Positions 3,901 through 52,611 of a stretch of DNA of 64,000 nt are shown one piece after another (positions within the stretch are counted from its first letter, which is position 1; each line of letters begins with the position of its first letter). A program made the translations under genes and the position numbers. The notes beneath the pieces were generated by a model. It did not search any database. It had not been told where the DNA came from and worked only from the letters and a program-made list of their open reading frames with translations. The stretch comes from Fistulifera solaris (Eukaryota), in the NCBI GenBank assembly GCA_030295235.1, contig AP026123.1, positions 434,001-498,000 on the forward strand, written 5' to 3'.

Positions 3901-4125
3901 CGGATCCGCCGTGATCTTTGCCATGCTTTCCGTGCGACGCGTATCGATACCGTGCCATTCATTCTGAGCGTTGTTATTTGTCGATTCACTGAGCCATCGA
4001 AAAGCACATAATGGTTGTAGATTATTGCGTGCGTAGGGAAGGACGATTGTTTTTGGGAATGAAACAAGCATCGTCGTAGGCCTAGTTGTCACGCGCGGCA
4101 TCTTGGAAAGATAGAGACGAAGCAT
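976..4125 (-). CDS. Pentatricopeptide-repeat (PPR) protein, ~1024 aa, 2 exons
   Basis: ORFs 1927-4125 and 976-1917 are joined by a GTAAGT...TAG intron at 1921-1995 (SYA|AMIHAW). Repeated PPR motifs: DPFVYSSLMNVCSKAG, TTIHFNIALNAC, PDRITYTSVILAF, PSTFNFAHVINSWA. Confidence 0.88.
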
Positions 4126-4667
4126 CGTAATGGTTCCATCGCATTCTACCTAGAGAGAATTCTTCTCGGTTAAACAAACAGTTGACTGATTTCTACAGAA
4201 TATTCGAATGTATCATCATCATCGTCATCGCAACGTTGCTTGCGGCATGAGTAAATGCTTGCGGTGTGCGTTTTTCTTTTCTTTTTTTTTTCTTGGTGGA
4301 CAGTTCGCGGCTCGCGTGAGATAGTATAAGGTTGAGGATTTTTATAAGAAGTGCCAGGTGCCAGTTACTGCGTAAACCAACATTTAGTTTGATAGTGAAT
4401 AAAGGTGCACAGAATTATTATGGACTTGATCGTGTCCTTGTACTCCGAGCATGTTTTATAGTTAGGTCATAACCGATAAAATTTTCGCACTGTGCGTGAA
4501 TAAAGTAAAAGTTTATGACGGTTAACTTTTGTGTTGCTTGTCCAAGAAAATGCCTCGTGGATCAACAACAACAATGAAACGTTGACCTTTGACCTTGCTA
4601 TACTCGTAACCCAAACAACACCACTTTCATCCAGTTCACTGCAGTTGAAACCGATAGAAAAGCCACG

Positions 4668-41189: not shown

Positions 41190-41462
41190 AGCCATTTTTC
41201 GTCACGATTGCATTTGAGTCACGAGTCGATATTACTTCAAGTCACATTGCTACCTAACCTTCATCCGCTATGCCAACTTCACTAGTCTTCATTGCAGTAT
41301 ATATTATTATATTTATCTGCATTTTCAATAGACTACGCGCTGATCCTTGATGACCTTATCGTCGATAAAAGTTGTGAATCGTTTTTGATGGCCGTTTTTC
41401 AGCACGACTGCATTTGAGTCATGAATCAGTATTCTTCCAAATGCTACCAAGTCTAACCTTTG
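41190..41462. repeat. Degenerate direct repeat (two copies 200 bp apart), each carrying the GACTG-N5-AGTC dyad
   Basis: gccatttttcgtcacgattgcatttgagtcacga...ctaacctt at 41191 versus gccgtttttcagcacgactgcatttgagtcatga...ctaacctt at 41391. Confidence 0.7.
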
Positions 41463-42903: not shown

Positions 42904-43173
42904 ATGGCACTGACACTGAAAGCAGGTCAACGAAATGCGGCTGCGTCAAGACGTATCTCTCCCAGCGACAGAAGAGTCATGTTATTGCACAACAAGAGCC
43001 GTCTTTTCTTCCGAAATGTTCATCATTGTGTTACTTTTGGTCGCGTTCGTCATGCTTGGGGCGAACACGTCGAACGTCATCCAAGATCAGTCTCGTGGCT
43101 TCTTCGATATCTCTTCAAGGAACAAAATCAAACAATCAGCGAACGATCCGCTTAGCAACGACACCTGGAGGTC
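42904..43173 (+). pseudogene. 5' part of the ABHD14-like alpha/beta-hydrolase gene interrupted by the retrotransposon
   Basis: TM segment FIIVLLLVAFVMLG. Removing the element and one TSD copy gives the continuous reading ...RLATTPGG-LAYYSCPSSRPSLILLHG. Further indels lie upstream. Confidence 0.7.
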
Positions 43174-43574
43174 AGTCAGGAATATAATGTAGCTTAAACT
43201 ATAGGGATGGTTGCAACAAGCTTGGGGCCAATTCCAAACTCTTACAACAGGATATCTAACAAGTCTAGGCAAACAAATTAGATTATGATGTTACTCGCTA
43301 CGGCTGGGATAAATCTTGAGAGGAAGCCGAATTTGCGATCTTGTTGATGAAGTGAAATAACTGTGCCCACAATAGTAGAACGTATGGATGGAATAGTAGA
43401 TGAGAAGGAAATGGGCCCGATGACCTCCAAGACTTAGGGCGTTGGAAGCGTCCCATAAGATTCTTAACACTGAAACTTGAGGTGCTTGGGATAATTAGAT
43501 GAAAACATAGAAAAGGTAGATCAGGAGCAACCGTGCCAGCGTCAATACCGATCAGACGCGACGGATTACTGACT
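43174..43574 (-). repeat. 3' LTR (401 bp), termini AGTCAG...CTGACT
   Basis: Direct repeat of 50568-50972. Immediately preceded on the minus strand by the polypurine tract. Confidence 0.95.
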
Positions 43575-43585
43575 CTCCCTCTTGA
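43575..43585 (-). other. Polypurine tract (PPT)
   Basis: Minus-strand TCAAGAGGGAG abuts the first base of the 3' LTR. Confidence 0.85.
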
Positions 43586-43663
43586 CGGACCGAAGAGAAA
43601 GAGCTTTAAACTAAAGCTATGACACGAAGGGCAGTCACAACTTTCAGCTCCTGTCTGTAATTG

Positions 43664-46600
43664 TCAGAAGCCCATAAAGCGCTTGCGAAGATCCAAGAAC
43701 GTAGCGAATCGACCTTAGTAAAGATGTCGGCAAAATTATTCTTCGACTCGATCTTTTTGACTAGTAGATCGCCATTCTTGACATGTTCGCGAAACCAATG
43801 GTACTTCACTCGCGTAAAACTTAGACTGCGGAGTGTCTTCAGGTGCATTCGCCAAGGTGAGCGCCATTGTTGTCTTCGAAGATAACAGAATGGGTTCGAA
43901 CCTTGACCTCGGAATTTAACTTGAAACACTCGCACAATTCTCGAGCCACGATACGCATAGGGATAACTTGGCGTGCGCACATCGATAGAGAAATGTACTC
44001 CGCCATCATAGTGGACAAGCATGTCTCGACTATGAGCTGCGATTTCCAAGTGACTGGGCAGCCGCCAAAGCAAATGACAAAACCAGCGAGACTTAACTGA
44101 TTTCGGGTCAGTAGGGCGTTCAGAACCCCATGTTCCAGCGAAATCGGAATCAACATAAGCGTCAATAGCAACATGGTTGCCAGGCTTAAGAGTCAGTCCA
44201 TTCAAGCGTAGTCTGTAAATATCGAACAATTTTCTTCACAGCAACACCATGGCTTTTCTTGGGATTCGCGCTATAACGAGCGGCTTGAGACACTGCCATA
44301 GTGATGTCGGGACGGGTATTATTCGAAATAAACAACAACATGCCGATGACCGAACGGTAATCCCAATTTTCTGTAAACGGGTCACCATCAGGATCCGAAC
44401 CCAAAGCTTCACCTGCCTTCGCCGGAACCTTTCGATCATCCTTGGAGACTCGATCCGCGAGAGAATCCCACTGTAGAACTAATCTTATCAATTAACGGCG
44501 TCTGGGTTAAAAGAAATGAGTCTCCATTGCGCTTGACCTGAATTCCTAGGTACTGAGAAATAGTTCCTTCATCCGTGACTGGGAGTCCCACTTTCTTCAA
44601 TTCAGCTAGGAGATTATCGATCTTCTTCTGGTCATCAGCAATAACGAACTTGTCATCGACATAGAGACTAACAGCGATGCCATCACCGAAGTACAAGCAC
44701 GAATCCTTCGAGCACTGCTTCAAATTCAACGTCTTGGTAAAGATTTCGTGGCAATGCTGATAATACAACCGAGGCGCATCGGCCGCTCCATAAATAGAAC
44801 GGTGCACTTTCAAGCAGTAGTCAGCGGGGATTGCACCTTCAGGGATTTTGGAAAGTAGAAAGGGGATATTCGCTGACCCGATAGGAAGTGACATGAACTT
44901 TACTTCCTTCAACTTAGCTTGGACGAATGCATTCGACACGTCAAAACAGCGCGTGACATAATCAAAGCGTAGCGGCAGCGTGAGCATCATGCGAACTGTA
45001 GACCACGTTCGACCGGGCGTAAGTATCCTAAACGTGTTTCTCTAAATCTCCACGAAGACATAGGGCGAAGCTTTGTGCCGCTTGACTTCACCTGTAAACT
45101 GATTGCGTTTTGCGGCGAAAAGTCCAAGTTGACGGAACAATTTGCGCGCCGATGGCATGAGCTTCGTCCTTGTGAACGATCGTGAAGGTCTTGGCGTTCC
45201 ACAATTCTTCAAACTCGGTCTGCATTCCTTTAATAAATTCATCGCGATCGACAGCCTTGAGAACATCCCAGTACGTGAGGGTGTCAGGGTCGGAATTCTT
45301 CTTTTTCTTCTTCTTGACTGGTGGAGACGAAGACGAAGAAAGAACTTCTATCGCGGAAAGATACATCTTCATAGCTTCCGACTCATGCGCAATGCGTCCA
45401 TCCATAAATAACATTTCTTGGATTGCGAGACGTGCGATGTGCTGGAGCTGCCAAAGACCCAATTCGGCAAATCCGTACTCGTCGGCGAATTTCTTGGCAG
45501 GCTTGCCAAAATTCGAACGAGACGAACGACGCAAAACCGGAGGAGTTTCCTCTTCAACAGTTTCAGTCGGTGCGGAATCGGCAGCAGGGATAGGAATAGA
45601 CGGGGAGGCGGACTCGACAGTCGGCTCTGGAGGTGCGGGCGACTTCGGGCACGGCCCAAGGGTCCGGCATATCCTCAAACGGAATATCTGCTAACTCGTC
45701 GACGAAATCGGGCGGAGGAGGAGTGCTAAACGTAGCCACGTCCACAGCATACGGAGATGAAACGTTAGGACCGGCAGCATCTTGACTTGGAGACGGTTCT
45801 GGAAACAAGTCACCCTCGGTCTCCCTGTGATGCGAAGGTGCTAGGGCTGACTCCCTCTGAGGCAAAGACGGCGGATCCGGCTCCCTCCGAAGCGGAGCAT
45901 CAAAGGCGACCTTGCGGCGAAAGGTGTCACGCGGTTTTCCGATGCGATTCGACGAAACAGGACGAGTTCCACTCATTCGACGACGTTCTTGCCACTCTTC
46001 GGTCCACTCGGGACTCAGTTCGAACTCAAGAGTGTTGTCGGCATCATCCAACGACTGCCAATCGAGGGCGAGATTCGAACATTTTGTCCCAGGGATACTG
46101 CGAAAAATCAGGGATAGCATCGGCATCACTCTCCACAGTGAAGAACCAATCGTCGAATAGACAATGGAACTGCGAAGTGATATAGCCGGAATGGGGATTC
46201 AAAACCTTGGGAACACTCGAAGTACTTTTCACTGACTCCCATGTAAACCCAGCGCCCGAGAGCGCGGTTTCCACTAGGAATTTTTCCGCCCTTCGAGATT
46301 CCAGGGTCCAATACATAGACAGGGGAGCCCCAAACGTGCAAATCGGAATATTCTTGCGGATCGAGGGATCGAATTTGTCAACAATTCAATCGAAGAACGA
46401 TTTGCAGTATCTCGGCGAGGCACTCGATTCATGAGATGGGCTGCATGAAGAACTGCCATCGGCCACAATTTGGACTCAATAATTTCCGGCCAGTGAAGGG
46501 TCGCATGAATCATCATCGTGCAGCGTCATATTCATGAGCACACCGATCGCCGCTCGGCTGGACCATTGTGATGATGCGCGCCAGGAGCTGCAATTCGTTG

Positions 46601-48691
46601 AACTTGACGATTTTCTGCGAGATCCTCTTGAAATCCTTGCGAAGTAAACGACTTGTGACCGTCGAAAGCGTGCTCTTTGATGCGATCGGCGCCCGTGGTC
46701 GGCCATCCAATCTTCAAAAGCATGTTTTCCCAACAGAGTCTCGTGAGTGTCGAAAGTGGTGTGGAGATGAACTCGGACACAACCAGTCGCGGCATCTACC
46801 CAAATAGAACCACCGATATATTTGTTTCCTCCGACGCCAGTGCCAGACTCGGACCGTCCTTCCTTGTCACAATAAAAATGATCGACGAAAACTCGGTCGC
46901 CCGGCATAAGCTGCTCTCGCTTTGTAGCCATAACTTTATCAGGATCAACAACTACTTTCTTGCCTTCCTTAGATGTTTGACGCTGCTTGCCGTGAGTTAC
47001 AGGCGAGGCATCCACACTTAGGGGCTTCGGAGGCTTTCTTGTCGGCCGTCTTGTTTCGACTTGCTTTTTGAAATAATTCGATTCGCTGAGGGAGGCGCTT
47101 GACGACATCCAAATGAACATGACCCAGGATTTGATGCCATTGCAAAAGCGTCTTTTGAGGCTCCGATAGATTCAGATTTCGCTGATCTACGGCCGTCAAA
47201 TTAGCTTCGAACGGTTCGTCATCGTCATCCTTGCAGCGCTTGTTTCGAAAATGTGTCCGGAACCATATCAACTTCGAAATCGATGGGATAAACGACTCCG
47301 ATGAACAGGTTGGACCGCACGTCGAGGGGAACTTCGATGGGAGGCTGATACGGTGCAGATGCTTCAGAAGGAGCCGGTCCGATGTCGACTTCGACCGTCG
47401 GACGCTCACCTCTGTCGCATTACACATCTTCGAACCACGGGCGTACCTGCATGCACATTCTCAGCATCTCGGAGTAGGGTTTGAGTGCTGATCAAATTGC
47501 GGCTGCAAGTCGGGGGCGTAGTAGGCATGCCCGCGATAAATCGACCATTTTCCGTTCGTTCCGAGCTTTGCACGTGAAGAGACCTTCGCCTTCGACTCGA
47601 ACCGACCCTGTGATACCATGGAGCAGGGGTCCAAAGATAGTCTCAGGTGGTGAATCAAAGAGGCGAGGATCATTCAACAAGTGACCAGAAGCACCGCTAT
47701 CGTAGACCACTTCGGCGCCAGGCTCTTCCCTGATTTGTGAGGAAGTTAAACTCCTCCCTCGACCGGGAGAAAGCGTGCGAAAAGTTGCGAGGGCCAAAAA
47801 GACGTTCCACTTCCTGAGCCATACTCTGCTCAACAAGTCTTGCCCCTATCTGATCCGTGTCCTCGAGTTCCGTATGTAGGAAAGCGGTACTGAAGTCCAC
47901 GTCATGCGAAAAGTCGAAGTCAATCCCGCGCACAGTCATGAGTGGCAAAGAATCCGGCGGACTTGGAACGAAATGAACAGAATTAAGCCCAACTAGACGC
48001 AGTCGGTCGGTGATAGTTCGAATCCACTGACTGCCAATGCGTGCGGTAGGAGGGGGCCTAAATTGCGGCCGCGGAATGCTCGAGTTCCCAACCCAATAGC
48101 GACAGCTTCTCTCCCTCTGAACGAGGCATGAAGGGGTCGGTATAGGGAAAATAGTGCGCAGCGATTATCTTGAAAATATCGCGGCGTCGCCCAAACTGCT
48201 TGCGAAGGTCGGTATACAGGGATTCTTCAAGGCGTTTCTTGTAATCTCCAATGTCAGGAAAGAAACGTTGGTTCCGCAAGCGAATAGGAAAAGAGCGATG
48301 GACAGCGCGATAGTAGGAGCGACCCGGACGTGGGGGCGACGAGCGAGAATTCTTCGGAAATTCCACTGGGAGTCCCGAGGAGATTTCTTGCGCGACGCTT
48401 TGCGTGTCCGGTGAACAACGGAAATCGCAACACAGAAAACACTTGAACTACCGACAGAAAAGCCGATAAGTCAACAAACAGAAAGCGAAGTCCGAGGAAG
48501 AAAGGAAAGACTCTGAAAATGCTTGCAGAAAATCCGCCAATCGTGACCCACTTCGCGATAGAGGAAAGTACGGTGACGTAATTTCCCATCGCAATGCGGC
48601 CGAAAAGCATCGTTAGCAACAAACAAGTCCAAAACACAAACCAAACCTTTTCGTCCCCGACGTGAGAATCGGAGTCCCTCCGACCCTCAAG
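43664..48691 (-). CDS. pol: Copia pol polyprotein (hydrophobic leader, protease, integrase, RT, RNase H), fragmented by many indels
   Basis: YDSGASGHL (PR, ~47690), LLQWHQILGH (IN zinc region), HHHNGPAERR (IN core), FDVSNAFVQA and LYVDD (RT), AYVDSDFAG, FEDNNGA and NFADIFTK (RNase H). Confidence 0.9.
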
Positions 48692-50514
48692 TCAGAGGTT
48701 GATCCCCTCATCCGAAACGACTTCACAGAAATTGAAGCTCGGAGGAACCTTTCCGGAACCGAGAAAATCCTTCTTCATCTCGATCAACTGCTCGGTCGTC
48801 ACCCTGACATTCTTTCCGTGATCCTTCGGAAGATGAGTCGAAACCCAACGATTACACTCGCGGGCACCACCAATACAAGCGGTTATCGACGACTTTCATC
48901 TGCTTTTCGCCGTCCTTGGGGGCCGGGTGATCGATTCCATTTTTCTTGCGATTGTTCCGGTTTTTCTTGGGATTTTTAGAATTACCGGAATTCGAGTTCT
49001 TGCACTTGGGACAATCCGCTTTCTTCACTCCTGGGGTGTTGCACCCCCAACACTTGAGATTCGGATTCGTCCCGCCCTTGGCTTCGTTCAAATAGAACTG
49101 GGGCGACGCTTTCTTGTCCTTGCTCGCGACCCATTTCCAGTGTCCGCCATCGCGCAAACTGTCATACAACTGCATGGCCTTGTCCAACACATTCTCCCAA
49201 TGCAGGTGTTTGTCGCGCAAAAGAGCCATCAACTGTCCATTGGAGTGATCGCCCAAAGTGCGGATAGCCTGGACAATCGGATCGTAGAACGAACGACGAA
49301 TTTCTTCAGAAAATCCGACAGCGCCAATTTCGAAGAACGCATCAATCAACCAGAGCATGAGTGTCTTATCCAACTCATTACCGGCGTTCGAGCAAGCGAA
49401 GTTCCTTGCGAATGGCGGTGCAGAATTGTTTCACATCATGTCCGGTGAAGTCCTTGATTTTGCGTTTCATCAACTGCGCTTTGTCTTCTTCGAGGCCACG
49501 GATCGACGTGGGATGGATTTCGTTGCAAATCATCATAAGAATGATAACGGCAGGCAAATCCTCGTAGTCCATGTACGGCGAGATCGTCGAGCGAAGGTCT
49601 TCGTCCATATGGTTGCTAAACAAGGTCATCCATGCGGAGTTGTTCTCTTTGTCGTAAGAATCCCACTCCCAGAGCATCATGAGTAGTTCCACCTTTCCCT
49701 TTTCCGTCAACCAGTTGAAAAGAGTATGGAAGTCCGGGACATAGAGCATCTTCTTCGGATCGTTCGGATCGGGCCAATAAAGCACAGTGTCCATACCGTG
49801 AATCTTGCCATGCGCACTCAAACGAGAGAGAAGATCATACAAGTCACACTTAAGCGTAAACTTGAAGTCTTCGATCTTGCAGCGTTTGGTGTATCCGCGC
49901 TCTTCGGCAGAAGTTCCAGGGACATAACGTTTGCAATCGGGCGTATCCAGAGACTTTCCAGCGAGGCCACTCCAATCATGCTTCGGAGCACCACCCATAA
50001 CGACCGTAGTTGCATTCTTCAGAATTCCCATCTTCGAGCTTCAAGACTGGGAACATTGGAATAGACACTACCACTTGGAGTGAAAGGCGTTTCTGGGTGA
50101 GAAGGTGTGGTCACCGGAGGCATAAGTCCAGCCTCAGAAAAGCGAACGCCAGCTGCACCTCGAGCGGTCGTCACCATGGGTTTTTCAGTAGCGCTTGTAG
50201 TCGTAACAGGGCTTAACGACAGGTGCATCATCGCGTCCAGTAGCGGCAACTTGAGCGTCGTACATCGCTTGCAAGTTGGCAATGGTCGCTTTGAGTTCAT
50301 CCAACGGCATCGGAGCTGCAATGTCCGTAAGGACATCGGCCGACGGTTTCAGAACGAGAGTAGGGACAGCGTCTCCGGAAGGTTCTCCAGAAACATCGGT
50401 ATCCTCGGCATCAAACATCTCTTCTTCATCGAGATCGGGGTCAGGGTTGATCACCAAATCCTCTCCGTCGCGAGCGGGAGGATTCTCTTGGTCTCCAGGG
50501 TTCATCGGGTTCAT
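48692..50514 (-). CDS. gag: Copia gag polyprotein, fragmented by indels
   Basis: ORF pieces 50185-50514, 50019-50336, 49378-50031, 48852-49373. HGMDTVLY core, CWGC...CPKC and WCxECNRWVSTH Cys/His motifs. Ends at TGA 48692-48694. Confidence 0.8.
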
Positions 50515-50555
50515 CGTGCACAGGGGTTGCGTAGCGGAAGTAACAGAGCCACCGA

Positions 50556-50568
50556 GGCAGTGCTACCA
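50556..50568 (-). other. Primer-binding site, probably for initiator tRNA-Met
   Basis: Minus-strand TGGTAGCACTGCC is complementary to a tRNA 3' end ...CAGUGCU-ACCA, implying an A1:U72 pair typical of eukaryotic initiator tRNA. Its first T is the last LTR base. Confidence 0.7.
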
Positions 50569-50972
50569 GTCAGGAATATAATGTAGCTTAAACTATAGGG
50601 ATGGTTGCAACAAGCTTGGGGCCAATTCCAAACTCTTACAACAGGATATCTAACAAGTCTAGGCAAACAAATTAGATTATGATGTTACTCGCTACGCTGG
50701 GATAAATCTTGAGAGGAAGCGAATTTGCGATCTTGTTGATGAAGTGAAATAACTGTGCCCACAATAGTAGAACGTATGGATGGAATAGTAGATGAGAAGG
50801 AAATGGGCCCGATGACCTCCAAGACTTAGGCGAGGGTCGTTGGAAGCGTCCCATAAGATTCTTAACACTGAAACTTGAGGTGCTTGGGATAATTAGATGA
50901 AAACATAGAAAAGGTAGATCAGGAGCAACCGTGCCAGCGTCAATACCGATCAGACGCGACGGATTACTGACT
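50568..50972 (-). repeat. 5' LTR (405 bp), termini AGTCAG...CTGACT
   Basis: Direct repeat of 43174-43574, differing by four small indel regions. Confidence 0.95.
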
Positions 50973-51525
50973 AGGTCTCGCGTATTATTCTTGTCCTTCG
51001 TCAAGACCTTCTTTGATCTTATTACACGGCTCAGCGTTCACCAAGGAAGACTGGAAGACTTCAGAGATTTTGCAGAATTTTTGTCGGCGTTGGTCCGTCG
51101 TAGCGCTCGATTTGAATGTTAAAACAAGCTACGAGCAACTTTTGGAAGTGATAAGGGACTTAAATGATGCCGGTCAAGTTACTTTGCCCATTAAAGGACT
51201 GGTGACTCCGTCGGCTTCCGGTTATGCTGTGATGAGCAGCTTGCAGGAAAATCTGGCAGCCTTGACGTCTCTCATTCAGTCATGGGTCCCCGTTGCTTGC
51301 AATGCTCTGCTGTCGGTTGATGCAGCCACATTAATACAGCTCAATGGATGGCCGATACTTGCAATCTACGGCGATCGCGACCCGTCTGGGAAGCGTAGCT
51401 CGGATCTACTAAAGCAACATTCGGGGGCGACTGTACAAGAGCTGTCCGGTCGACACCCATGCTATTTAGATTCCCCTGTGGAGTTTGTTGACACCATCAA
51501 CGATTATTTGAACGGCATCGAATAG
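50973..51525 (+). pseudogene. 3' part (whole catalytic domain) of the ABHD14-like alpha/beta hydrolase
   Basis: ILLHGSAFTKEDW, VVALDL, LVTPSASG (nucleophile elbow), AIYGDRD, GRHPCYLDSP, as in ABHD14A/B. Confidence 0.82.
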
Positions 51526-51703: not shown

Positions 51704-52611
51704 TTACAAAAGTCCCACGCCCTTCAATTCCTGCTGAGCAATCACTAAAATTTGGCCAAGCCAAGCCACTTGTAGGACCGAAAGGCTGCTCAACGACACT
51801 AAGAAGAATTTCAACCATCCACGCCGTGTCTTGGTACGAACATCATCGCCTTTCAACGCAAGCAGTACATCGCGACTAAAATGATAAGAAAAGATGGGCC
51901 ACAAAATGCATCGGCAAACAATGAATGCCACGACGAAGAACAGCCCAACGACCACTTTGGTCATGGGAAAGGCGTCGCCCAATCCAACAACACCGTGTTC
52001 GTCATCAAAATTGGCCAAGACACAAAGAATAGCCGTCGAGACTTCCGAGATACCGAAAAAGAAAATCGCGTAAAAGAGTCCGACACCGCTCGACATGCTG
52101 CCGTAGGCAGTAAAGATGCTAAAGACGTGATGAAAGATGAATTCAGGGCCGTCATTCCAGGCGATCGTATCGACGAGATTCTTCAATTGATAGCCCAGGA
52201 AGATGAGAGCAACACGGAAGGCTCCTGGATGGTACGTGTACAATCTCTGTTCGTGTCCGGCGGCCGGCATGGCGTTCTTGTGACCGCGCAAAGCCGCCAT
52301 GAGCGGCTCAAAAACCTCACGGGCTTGCCAGCCCGTCGCAGCACAAAGCAGGCACGAGAGAGTGTCGACACCCAAATGACGGGCTAAGATCTGACGATTA
52401 ACTTCATTCTCAAACAATTCATGAGCATCCCGATAAATCGCAAAGATGTAACGGCAGGTGTGTTCAACGGAGGTCAAAAGAGAATCAACAAAGCTATGGT
52501 GAGGACACACGAACTGAGATTCGGCTTCTCGTTGCACTCATGGAATGAATCTAGAGACCAAAGCACACGAAGAGACCGTTGCTGAAGTTGTTGTTGTGTT
52601 GGTCGGCACAT
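51704..52611 (-). CDS. TLC (TRAM/LAG1/CLN8) domain membrane protein; frameshift near 52478
   Basis: FIFHHVFS, GISEVSTAIL, FFVVAFIVCRCILWP, LQVAWL. ATG at 52611 is inferred across a homopolymer indel. Confidence 0.82.

Follow-up and report, generated by a model that had tools for sequence, protein, structure and literature searches.

A 64,000-nucleotide stretch of the Fistulifera solaris genome (the window; contig AP026123.1, positions 434,001 to 498,000) carries a Ty1/copia retrotransposon of 7,799 bp on the minus strand at 43174–50972, as read from the sequence and from an alignment of its long terminal repeats (LTRs). Both LTRs run AGTCAG...CTGACT; the termini form a perfect 6-bp inverted repeat, and 9 of the 10 terminal bases pair. 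TG...CA termini, usual but optional in Ty1/copia, are replaced by AG...CT in this element. Going by the sequence, the outermost LTR base pair is swapped, giving AGTCA...TGACT where TGTCA...TGACA would be expected. We confirmed that these ends are real and well bounded. We consider it probable that this is a young CoDi-type Ty1/copia element with a swapped terminal pair, whose T-3′-OH would be joined from blunt cDNA, and that such ends are primer-independent and recurrent.

Ends of the element and of its copies

The earlier, sequence-only reading of this stretch had given the element as 43169..50977, a range that includes both copies of the target site duplication (TSD), AGGTC; the element proper is the shorter interval given above. 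For two random 5-mers drawn from the window such agreement has p = 0.0012. A contig from sequencing run X2, which belongs to a study separate from that of run X1, joins position 43168 directly to 50973 and skips 7,804 nt, that is 7,799 plus 5. Five letters at this junction fit either side, which gives an empty allele with a single AGGTC. The behavior of the genome is that of an allodiploid whose homeologs are 81–88% identical here. On the homeologous contig, C4, the site holds one diverged 5-mer (AGGAT) and no indel, and the homeologous gene (L096:961-2046) is an uninterrupted open reading frame (ORF) of 361 aa spanning the insertion site. The empty allele and the homeolog thus bear out the proposal that AG...CT are true ends flanked by a TSD. 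The X1 contigs at the two filled junctions enter the LTR by 29 and 30 nt only and were not counted as bridging, for which the bar was 31 nt. The interrupted host gene shows a weak likeness to alpha/beta-hydrolases (PF12697, E 0.033, below cut-off).

The 5′ and 3′ LTRs differ by no substitutions and by 8 gap columns in the alignment. Their identity and the presence/absence polymorphism of the insertion indicate that it is recent. A joint from 50837 to 43440 in X3 was not taken as a circle, as it may be an LTR collapse in the assembly.

On the inner side of the 3′ LTR, the polypurine tract (PPT) AAGAGGGAG has the same register as the GAGAGGGAG/TG junction in related families. In the primer-binding site (PBS) TGGTAGCACTGC, the initial T (50568) doubles as the final base of the 5′ LTR, so that the 1-nt overlap noticed earlier is present in the sequence. 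The comparison with host tRNAs that had been suggested points to the initiator tRNAiMet: its gene is present in two copies ending in ...GCAGTGCTA, and with CCA appended the last 12 nt of the tRNA (nt 64–75) match the PBS. The initiator tRNA genes were located by a pattern search; an Rfam tRNA search, which scored 63 candidates out of 1,922 and for the most part clusters that look organellar, did not list them.

Other copies had been proposed as a check on the ends, and two could be read. The family copy on contig C5 runs GCCAG/AGTCAG...CTGACT/GGTAGCACTGC, with the same 5′-LTR ends and PBS; it is truncated and hence has no TSD. A solo element of 128 bp on C12 (L019:824-951, G000:C12) keeps A...T ends within its own TSD, AAAAT. 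It has only the LTR ends in common with the LTR in the window, and may be a miniature relative or else a solo LTR with an internal deletion; its homeolog is too diverged for an empty-site readout. In the C5 copy (L018:1950-2990, 4050-4351; G000:C5 end), telomeric repeats cut the element inside gag, and after the cut there are two tandem gag pieces of ~500 bp, each between telomere-like repeats, ~1 kb from the telomere. The telomeric joint is present in run X1 too, and the sequence looks like breakage followed by telomere healing inside the element. The pattern TGACTGGTAGCA gave 9 matches in the genome vs. 8 in the control, and only 2 of these belong to the family of the window element.

Copia ends, primers and relatives

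We surveyed 51 regions: the window, 44 of the 52 other reverse transcriptase (RT) matches and 6 further regions. LTR pairs and TSDs were searched without any end motif. Relatives of the query are overrepresented in the sample. The 8 RT matches left out score like the TG...CA family L092, so that the tally understates TG...CA. Ends were defined by a TSD in 42 regions, the other 9 having no usable LTR pair or TSD; nine copies were assessed with the family ends fixed beforehand. Ends other than TG...CA were found in 32 of these 42 copia insertions: 23 have TG...GA (16 with a 5-bp and 7 with a 6-bp TSD) and 9, from four families, have A...CT with a 5-bp TSD. The remaining 10 have TG...CA and a 6-bp TSD. 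The A...CT families are that of the window element (AGTCAG...CTGACT), L053 (AGTCAA...TTGACT), L082/85/86 (AGTGAA...ATCGCT) and L071/76/84/87 (AACGAG...TTCGCT). Within each family the ends are uniform. In each of the 42 copies the first base is the complement of the last, also where this fails at position 2; families with A...A or T...T ends were not found among them.

The most numerous family in the sample is a young 7.1-kb TG...GA family with a half-tRNA PBS; it has no fewer than 16 copies flanked by a TSD (L066, L069, L077, L079, L081, L089, L090, L143-L146, L148-L152). The TG...CA families of 5.1–5.4 kb comprise L067, L068, L070, L073-L075, L078, L083 and L092; their PBS position starts with CGCTT, and in L092 it matches tRNAiMet over 7 nt only.

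A single tRNAiMet appears to serve these elements in three ways, judging from PBS matches in nine of them. The window family has 12 nt matching the tRNA 3′ end. L085 and L087 have the hemivirus-type PBS, absent from the window family, with 14 nt matching the anticodon arm (nt 26–39), and L053 and L090 have a degenerate form of it with a mismatch or indel. L059 and L062 match the D arm (nt 8–25) over 16–17 nt. In L085/L087 the next tRNA base is C40, which is unable to pair with the terminal T. The sequence-only reading had tied the PBS overlap to the unusual ends, and this part did not hold: the three other A...CT families have a half-tRNA PBS and no overlap, and an overlap of 1–2 nt with the LTR is seen in the three tested T...A elements whose PBS is of the D-arm type or related to it. 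The overlap and the ends are therefore separable.

The D-arm PBS, CGCTTCCTCTGCGCC, occurs in the 6-bp-TSD families L054-L064 and L062 (e.g., L059, G000:C1:2470928-2480918; tested in L059 and L062), and this match to the D arm suggests that these families could be primed by a 5′ tRNA fragment of ~24 nt. The excerpted text of Neumann 2019 distinguishes whole-tRNA, half-tRNA and self priming; a D-arm primer is absent from these three types, with no dedicated literature search made.

In trees of RT and RNase H (RH), the four A...CT families and the 5-bp TG...GA family fall in one broad group with uneven support, and the 6-bp families lie apart. The trees come from fast searches, with residues projected from an indel-rich assembly. 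RT-RH identity among the A...CT families is 37–45%, except for L085/L087 (83%), and A-start ends occupy at least three places on the tree. The suggestion of a wider lineage with these ends therefore stands insofar as A...CT recurs in four families, but they are not one lineage. We do not claim a single AGTCA...TGACT clade of the window family and L053, since this grouping is unstable across tree runs.

Relatives in metagenomes were examined at 31 of 37 loci (six short or weak matches excluded), of which 29 were readable, for left ends only and without TSD. The dinucleotide after the PPT is TG in 22, TA in 4, TC in 2 and AG in 1, and the PPT register is unchanged before all four. No full element with both flanks was found among the 31 loci, and none of 49 candidates in viral_contigs was confirmed. 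Ten loci in genome_contigs yielded a PPT-like site in 3 (two TG, one uncertain AG) and a TSD in none. Diatom-type copia sequences were seen inside bacterial metagenome-assembled genomes (L157-L165); they are probably eukaryotic binning contamination.

How the ends may be joined

The integrated product has a T-3′ on both strands and a 5-bp duplication. In the mechanism that we propose, full-length host tRNAiMet would prime minus-strand synthesis. No spacer separates the LTR from the PPT or from the PBS, which adjoins or overlaps it, so the cDNA would be blunt and without 3′ processing, as in Ty1, whose integrase uses blunt cDNA and a 5-bp stagger (PMC2939329, excerpt). Given the TSD-defined boundaries, the integrase would join a T-3′-OH (CT-3′-OH) at each end, the two joints being staggered by 5 bp. 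Retention of the last T in the window family would require that RNase H leave the terminal A of the primer on the minus strand, or else that the primer be used without that A; in HIV-1, the cut that RNase H makes in the tRNA separates the terminal A from the C (PMC11912779, excerpt). The T ends would then belong to the pairing of element and integrase rather than being a by-product of the primer, and would have been gained, or else lost, more than once. The subterminal inverted repeat is retained in this clade, whose integrases may be tolerant of drift in the terminal two bases. That first and last bases match, across about three independent origins, suggests that a single active site reads an identical terminal base at each end. 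A bolder version can be put forward only tentatively: diatom copia integrases would have repeatedly switched the reactive 3′ base from A to T at both ends independently of the primer, the T of the window family then allowing a change from half- to full-tRNA priming with the last A kept as template, and AG...CT elements would make up a sizeable undescribed share in diatoms that is hidden from motif-based annotation.

Several observations weigh against the mechanism that we favor. About three independent A...T origins underlie the symmetry, which copia does not strictly need: in lotus the asymmetric TG...CT outnumbers every other non-canonical end (PMC9804982, excerpt). One tree run placed the window family beside L053 (aLRT, approximate likelihood-ratio test, 99.9) and the next did not, and in a comparison of three motif windows no integrase residue followed the end type. 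Only one of the 29 readable metagenome PPT junctions starts with AG. Finally, for L066, L077 and L084 an end one base shorter and a 6-bp TSD fit equally well, and their ends were settled by family consistency.

We regard as unlikely an alternative in which a relaxed integrase leaves the terminal dinucleotides unread and neutral drift makes the matched A...T and T...A ends a coincidence. Such drift would suit the range of ends in this genome (TG...CA, TG...GA, AG...CT and AA...CT), the TG, TA, TC or AG starts of metagenome relatives and the lack of an integrase signature. It fits poorly with first/last complementarity in 42 of 42 copies without any A...A or T...T family, with ends that are constant inside families, and with Ty1, where changing the TG...CA ends abolished use of the substrate (PMC2939329, excerpt). 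The terminal bases could instead be a remnant of priming, the T being owed to a tRNA 3′ A that was retained and the PPT supplying the first A, around an inner GTCA...TGAC. In the window family the T does pair with A76 of the tRNA and the first A does extend the purine run. The terminal T is shared, however, by L053, L082/85/86 and L071/76/84/87, where a half-tRNA PBS is unable to supply it, and the constant register of the PPT 9-mer shows that A substitutes for T and is not an extra base; we hold this explanation to be decidedly improbable. The assembly is rich in indels, which might raise the suspicion that the element really has canonical ends, or ends at other positions. The exact 7,804-nt skip in the empty allele, the homeolog without indel, the solo element with its own TSD and the nine TSD-defined A...CT insertions make such an artefact barely credible, and the empty alleles already refute it. 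We thus favor the joining of a T-3′-OH from blunt cDNA.

The integrases of LTR elements and retroviruses are regarded as acting on a terminal CA that hardly varies. A copia element in which both ends lack CA-3′, alongside related T...A families in one genome, offers a natural comparison for how the reactive base is read, and if the switch from A to T is true, these would be natural matched pairs of related integrases, T...A vs. A...T, that use no CA. How integrase reads this base is called unclear for errantiviruses in the excerpt of a review (PMC5408687). With TG...CA in only 10 of 42 copies of a query-biased sample, the number of diatom LTR elements could be underestimated by annotation that requires a motif. 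The impact is confined to annotation and integrase biochemistry and does not extend to a new type of system. The element is a modest variant, notable for its CA-free palindromic ends and primer independence; drifting ends are known in CoDi and plant copia elements.

Coding region and comparison with known elements

The features of the element are listed below.

Positions of the element, its parts and the interrupted host gene in the window
Feature	Positions	Strand	Basis and remarks
TSD AGGTC, left copy	43169..43173	.	single copy in empty allele; homeolog single too
3′ LTR, 401 bp, AGTCAG...CTGACT	43174..43574	-	sequence, LTR alignment
PPT AAGAGGGAG	43575..43583	-	adjoins first A of 3′ LTR
RNase H region (YVDSDF...ADIFTK), pol end	43667..44157	-	tblastn of P0019; indel-broken in assembly; inner limit approximate
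Reverse transcriptase, copia type (RVT_2)	44439..45150	-	PF07727 and P0019 mapping; limits approximate
Integrase: gag-pre-integrase/HHCC, D-D(35)E core, SH3-like	46070..47250	-	Pfam and motifs; limits approximate
Aspartic protease region (DSG, GITG flap pattern)	47440..47731	-	PF22936 in P0001/P0019, below curated cut-off; limits approximate
gag ORF region	48700..50514	-	P0019 residues 1–599 map here; lower limit approximate
PBS TGGTAGCACTGC	50557..50568	-	pairs with 3′ 12 nt of host tRNAiMet
5′ LTR, 405 bp, AGTCAG...CTGACT	50568..50972	-	sequence, LTR alignment
TSD AGGTC, right copy	50973..50977	.	sequence, empty allele, homeolog
3′ part of interrupted host gene	50978..51525	+	homeolog ORF continuous; 5′ part left of 43173

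The domain order of pol, protease (PR)-integrase (IN)-RT-RH, was obtained with Pfam on the near-identical proteins P0001 and P0019 and mapped to the window. PF07727 matched above cut-off over 44439–45041 (E 4.5e-19). For the integrase, PF13976 was detected in the window (E 5e-4), PF13976 and PF25597 were found in P0001/P0019, and PF00665 gave no Pfam match in these proteins. Its residues D583, D656 and E692 are unchanged across 16 aligned relatives, and the motifs are seen in the window. The YVDSDF and ADIFTK motifs we take to be those of RNase H. The gag region has one degenerate zinc-knuckle-like motif, CPQCNRWVSTHLPKDH, and no Pfam match to gag was obtained in the window or in P0001/P0019. 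pol stops ~90 nt short of the 3′ LTR. By tblastn, P0019 is spread over 50514–43667 in 26 pieces. Compared with a short-read contig over 6 kb, the window shows 55 gap positions and 14 substitutions, so that the majority of the frameshifts are probably assembly errors.

Two LTRs, a PBS, a PPT, a TSD within 4–6 bp, RVT_2 and the DD(35)E core are all present, so the assignment to copia made from the letters alone was right. So was that to a diatom lineage: those members of the closest protein cluster that are named come from Fistulifera solaris, and the named ones among the best 120 protein matches are from Mayamaea, Fragilaria and Cylindrotheca. On its sequence features we class the element as a diatom Ty1/copia of CoDi type, which it resembles in host, PR-IN-RT-RH order, length (6.6–8 kb) and 5-bp TSD. 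No named CoDi sequence was among the matches from the sequence searches, including the best 120 protein matches. A chromodomain gave no Pfam match at E ≤ 0.1 in P0001/P0019, though a divergent one could escape. In the excerpt of Llorens 2009 (PMC2774666), CoDi-A has a chromodomain and an LPIV-type protease pattern, and CoDi-C has no chromodomain, one CCHC array and a GIGG/GATG protease. The C-terminal integrase chromodomain and LPIV-type protease pattern of CoDi-A / CoDiI (CoDi1-4, 7) were not found here. The CoDi-C features were found in part: no chromodomain match, a GITG in P0001 that resembles the listed GIGG/GATG flap, and a single degenerate knuckle rather than a clear CCHC. By these feature lists, with no named CoDi in the trees, CoDi-C (CoDi6.1/6.6) is nearest.

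Non-canonical ends as such are not new in this group, as TG/CA is missing in 3 of 26 CoDi families (CoDi3.2, 4.2 and 4.3; Maumus 2009, PMC2806351, excerpt), and they are common in this genome. AG...CT itself was absent from the CoDi tables covered: Tables S10 and S11 of Filloramo 2021 (PMC8147415) list TATA, TGTA/TACA, TGGA, TGAG, TGAT and TTCG, and none of their 144 rows (0/84 and 0/60) has an A start or a CT end, unlike the element in the window. In plants, the excerpts at hand state that the first base of non-canonical copia is always T, with TGCT and TACT known (LTR_retriever preprint 10.1101/137141; lotus, PMC9804982), and describe TGTT/AACA copia in pear, with an A start and AA...CA (PMC5659011). 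Plant elements thus have altered dinucleotides in common with ours, including CT-3′ right ends and an A start, but the AACA families keep the right-hand CA, whereas the element in the window is a palindromic AG...CT with CA-3′ on neither strand. Ty1 of budding yeast, going by the partial text cited above, likewise primes from the tRNAiMet 3′ end and makes a 5-bp TSD, and it differs in its TG...CA ends. We found no description of AG...CT copia in the literature searched (few subscription papers, no Repbase), and the excerpts of PMC3587641 and PMC1635307 hold nothing bearing on such ends.

Errantiviruses belong to the Ty3/gypsy superfamily, with RT-RH-IN order and env, and have a 1-nt PBS overlap. 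Their AGT...AnT termini are an exception among LTR elements in the available portions of Benachenhou 2013 (PMC3601003) and PMC5408687. The AGT...ACT of the window element fits the pattern of the Drosophila gypsy, ZAM and Idefix subgroups, as the sequence-only reading had pointed out. The likeness is, on sequence grounds, convergence, because the element is copia by domain order, with RVT_2, IN before RT and no env in place of a gypsy RT, IN after RH and env.

Adjoining the insertion, a TLC-domain protein gene lies at 51704–52537 on the minus strand (PF03798, E 1.5e-13). On the other side, 41191–41240 and 41391–41440 form a 50-bp direct repeat of 78% identity, 200 bp apart.

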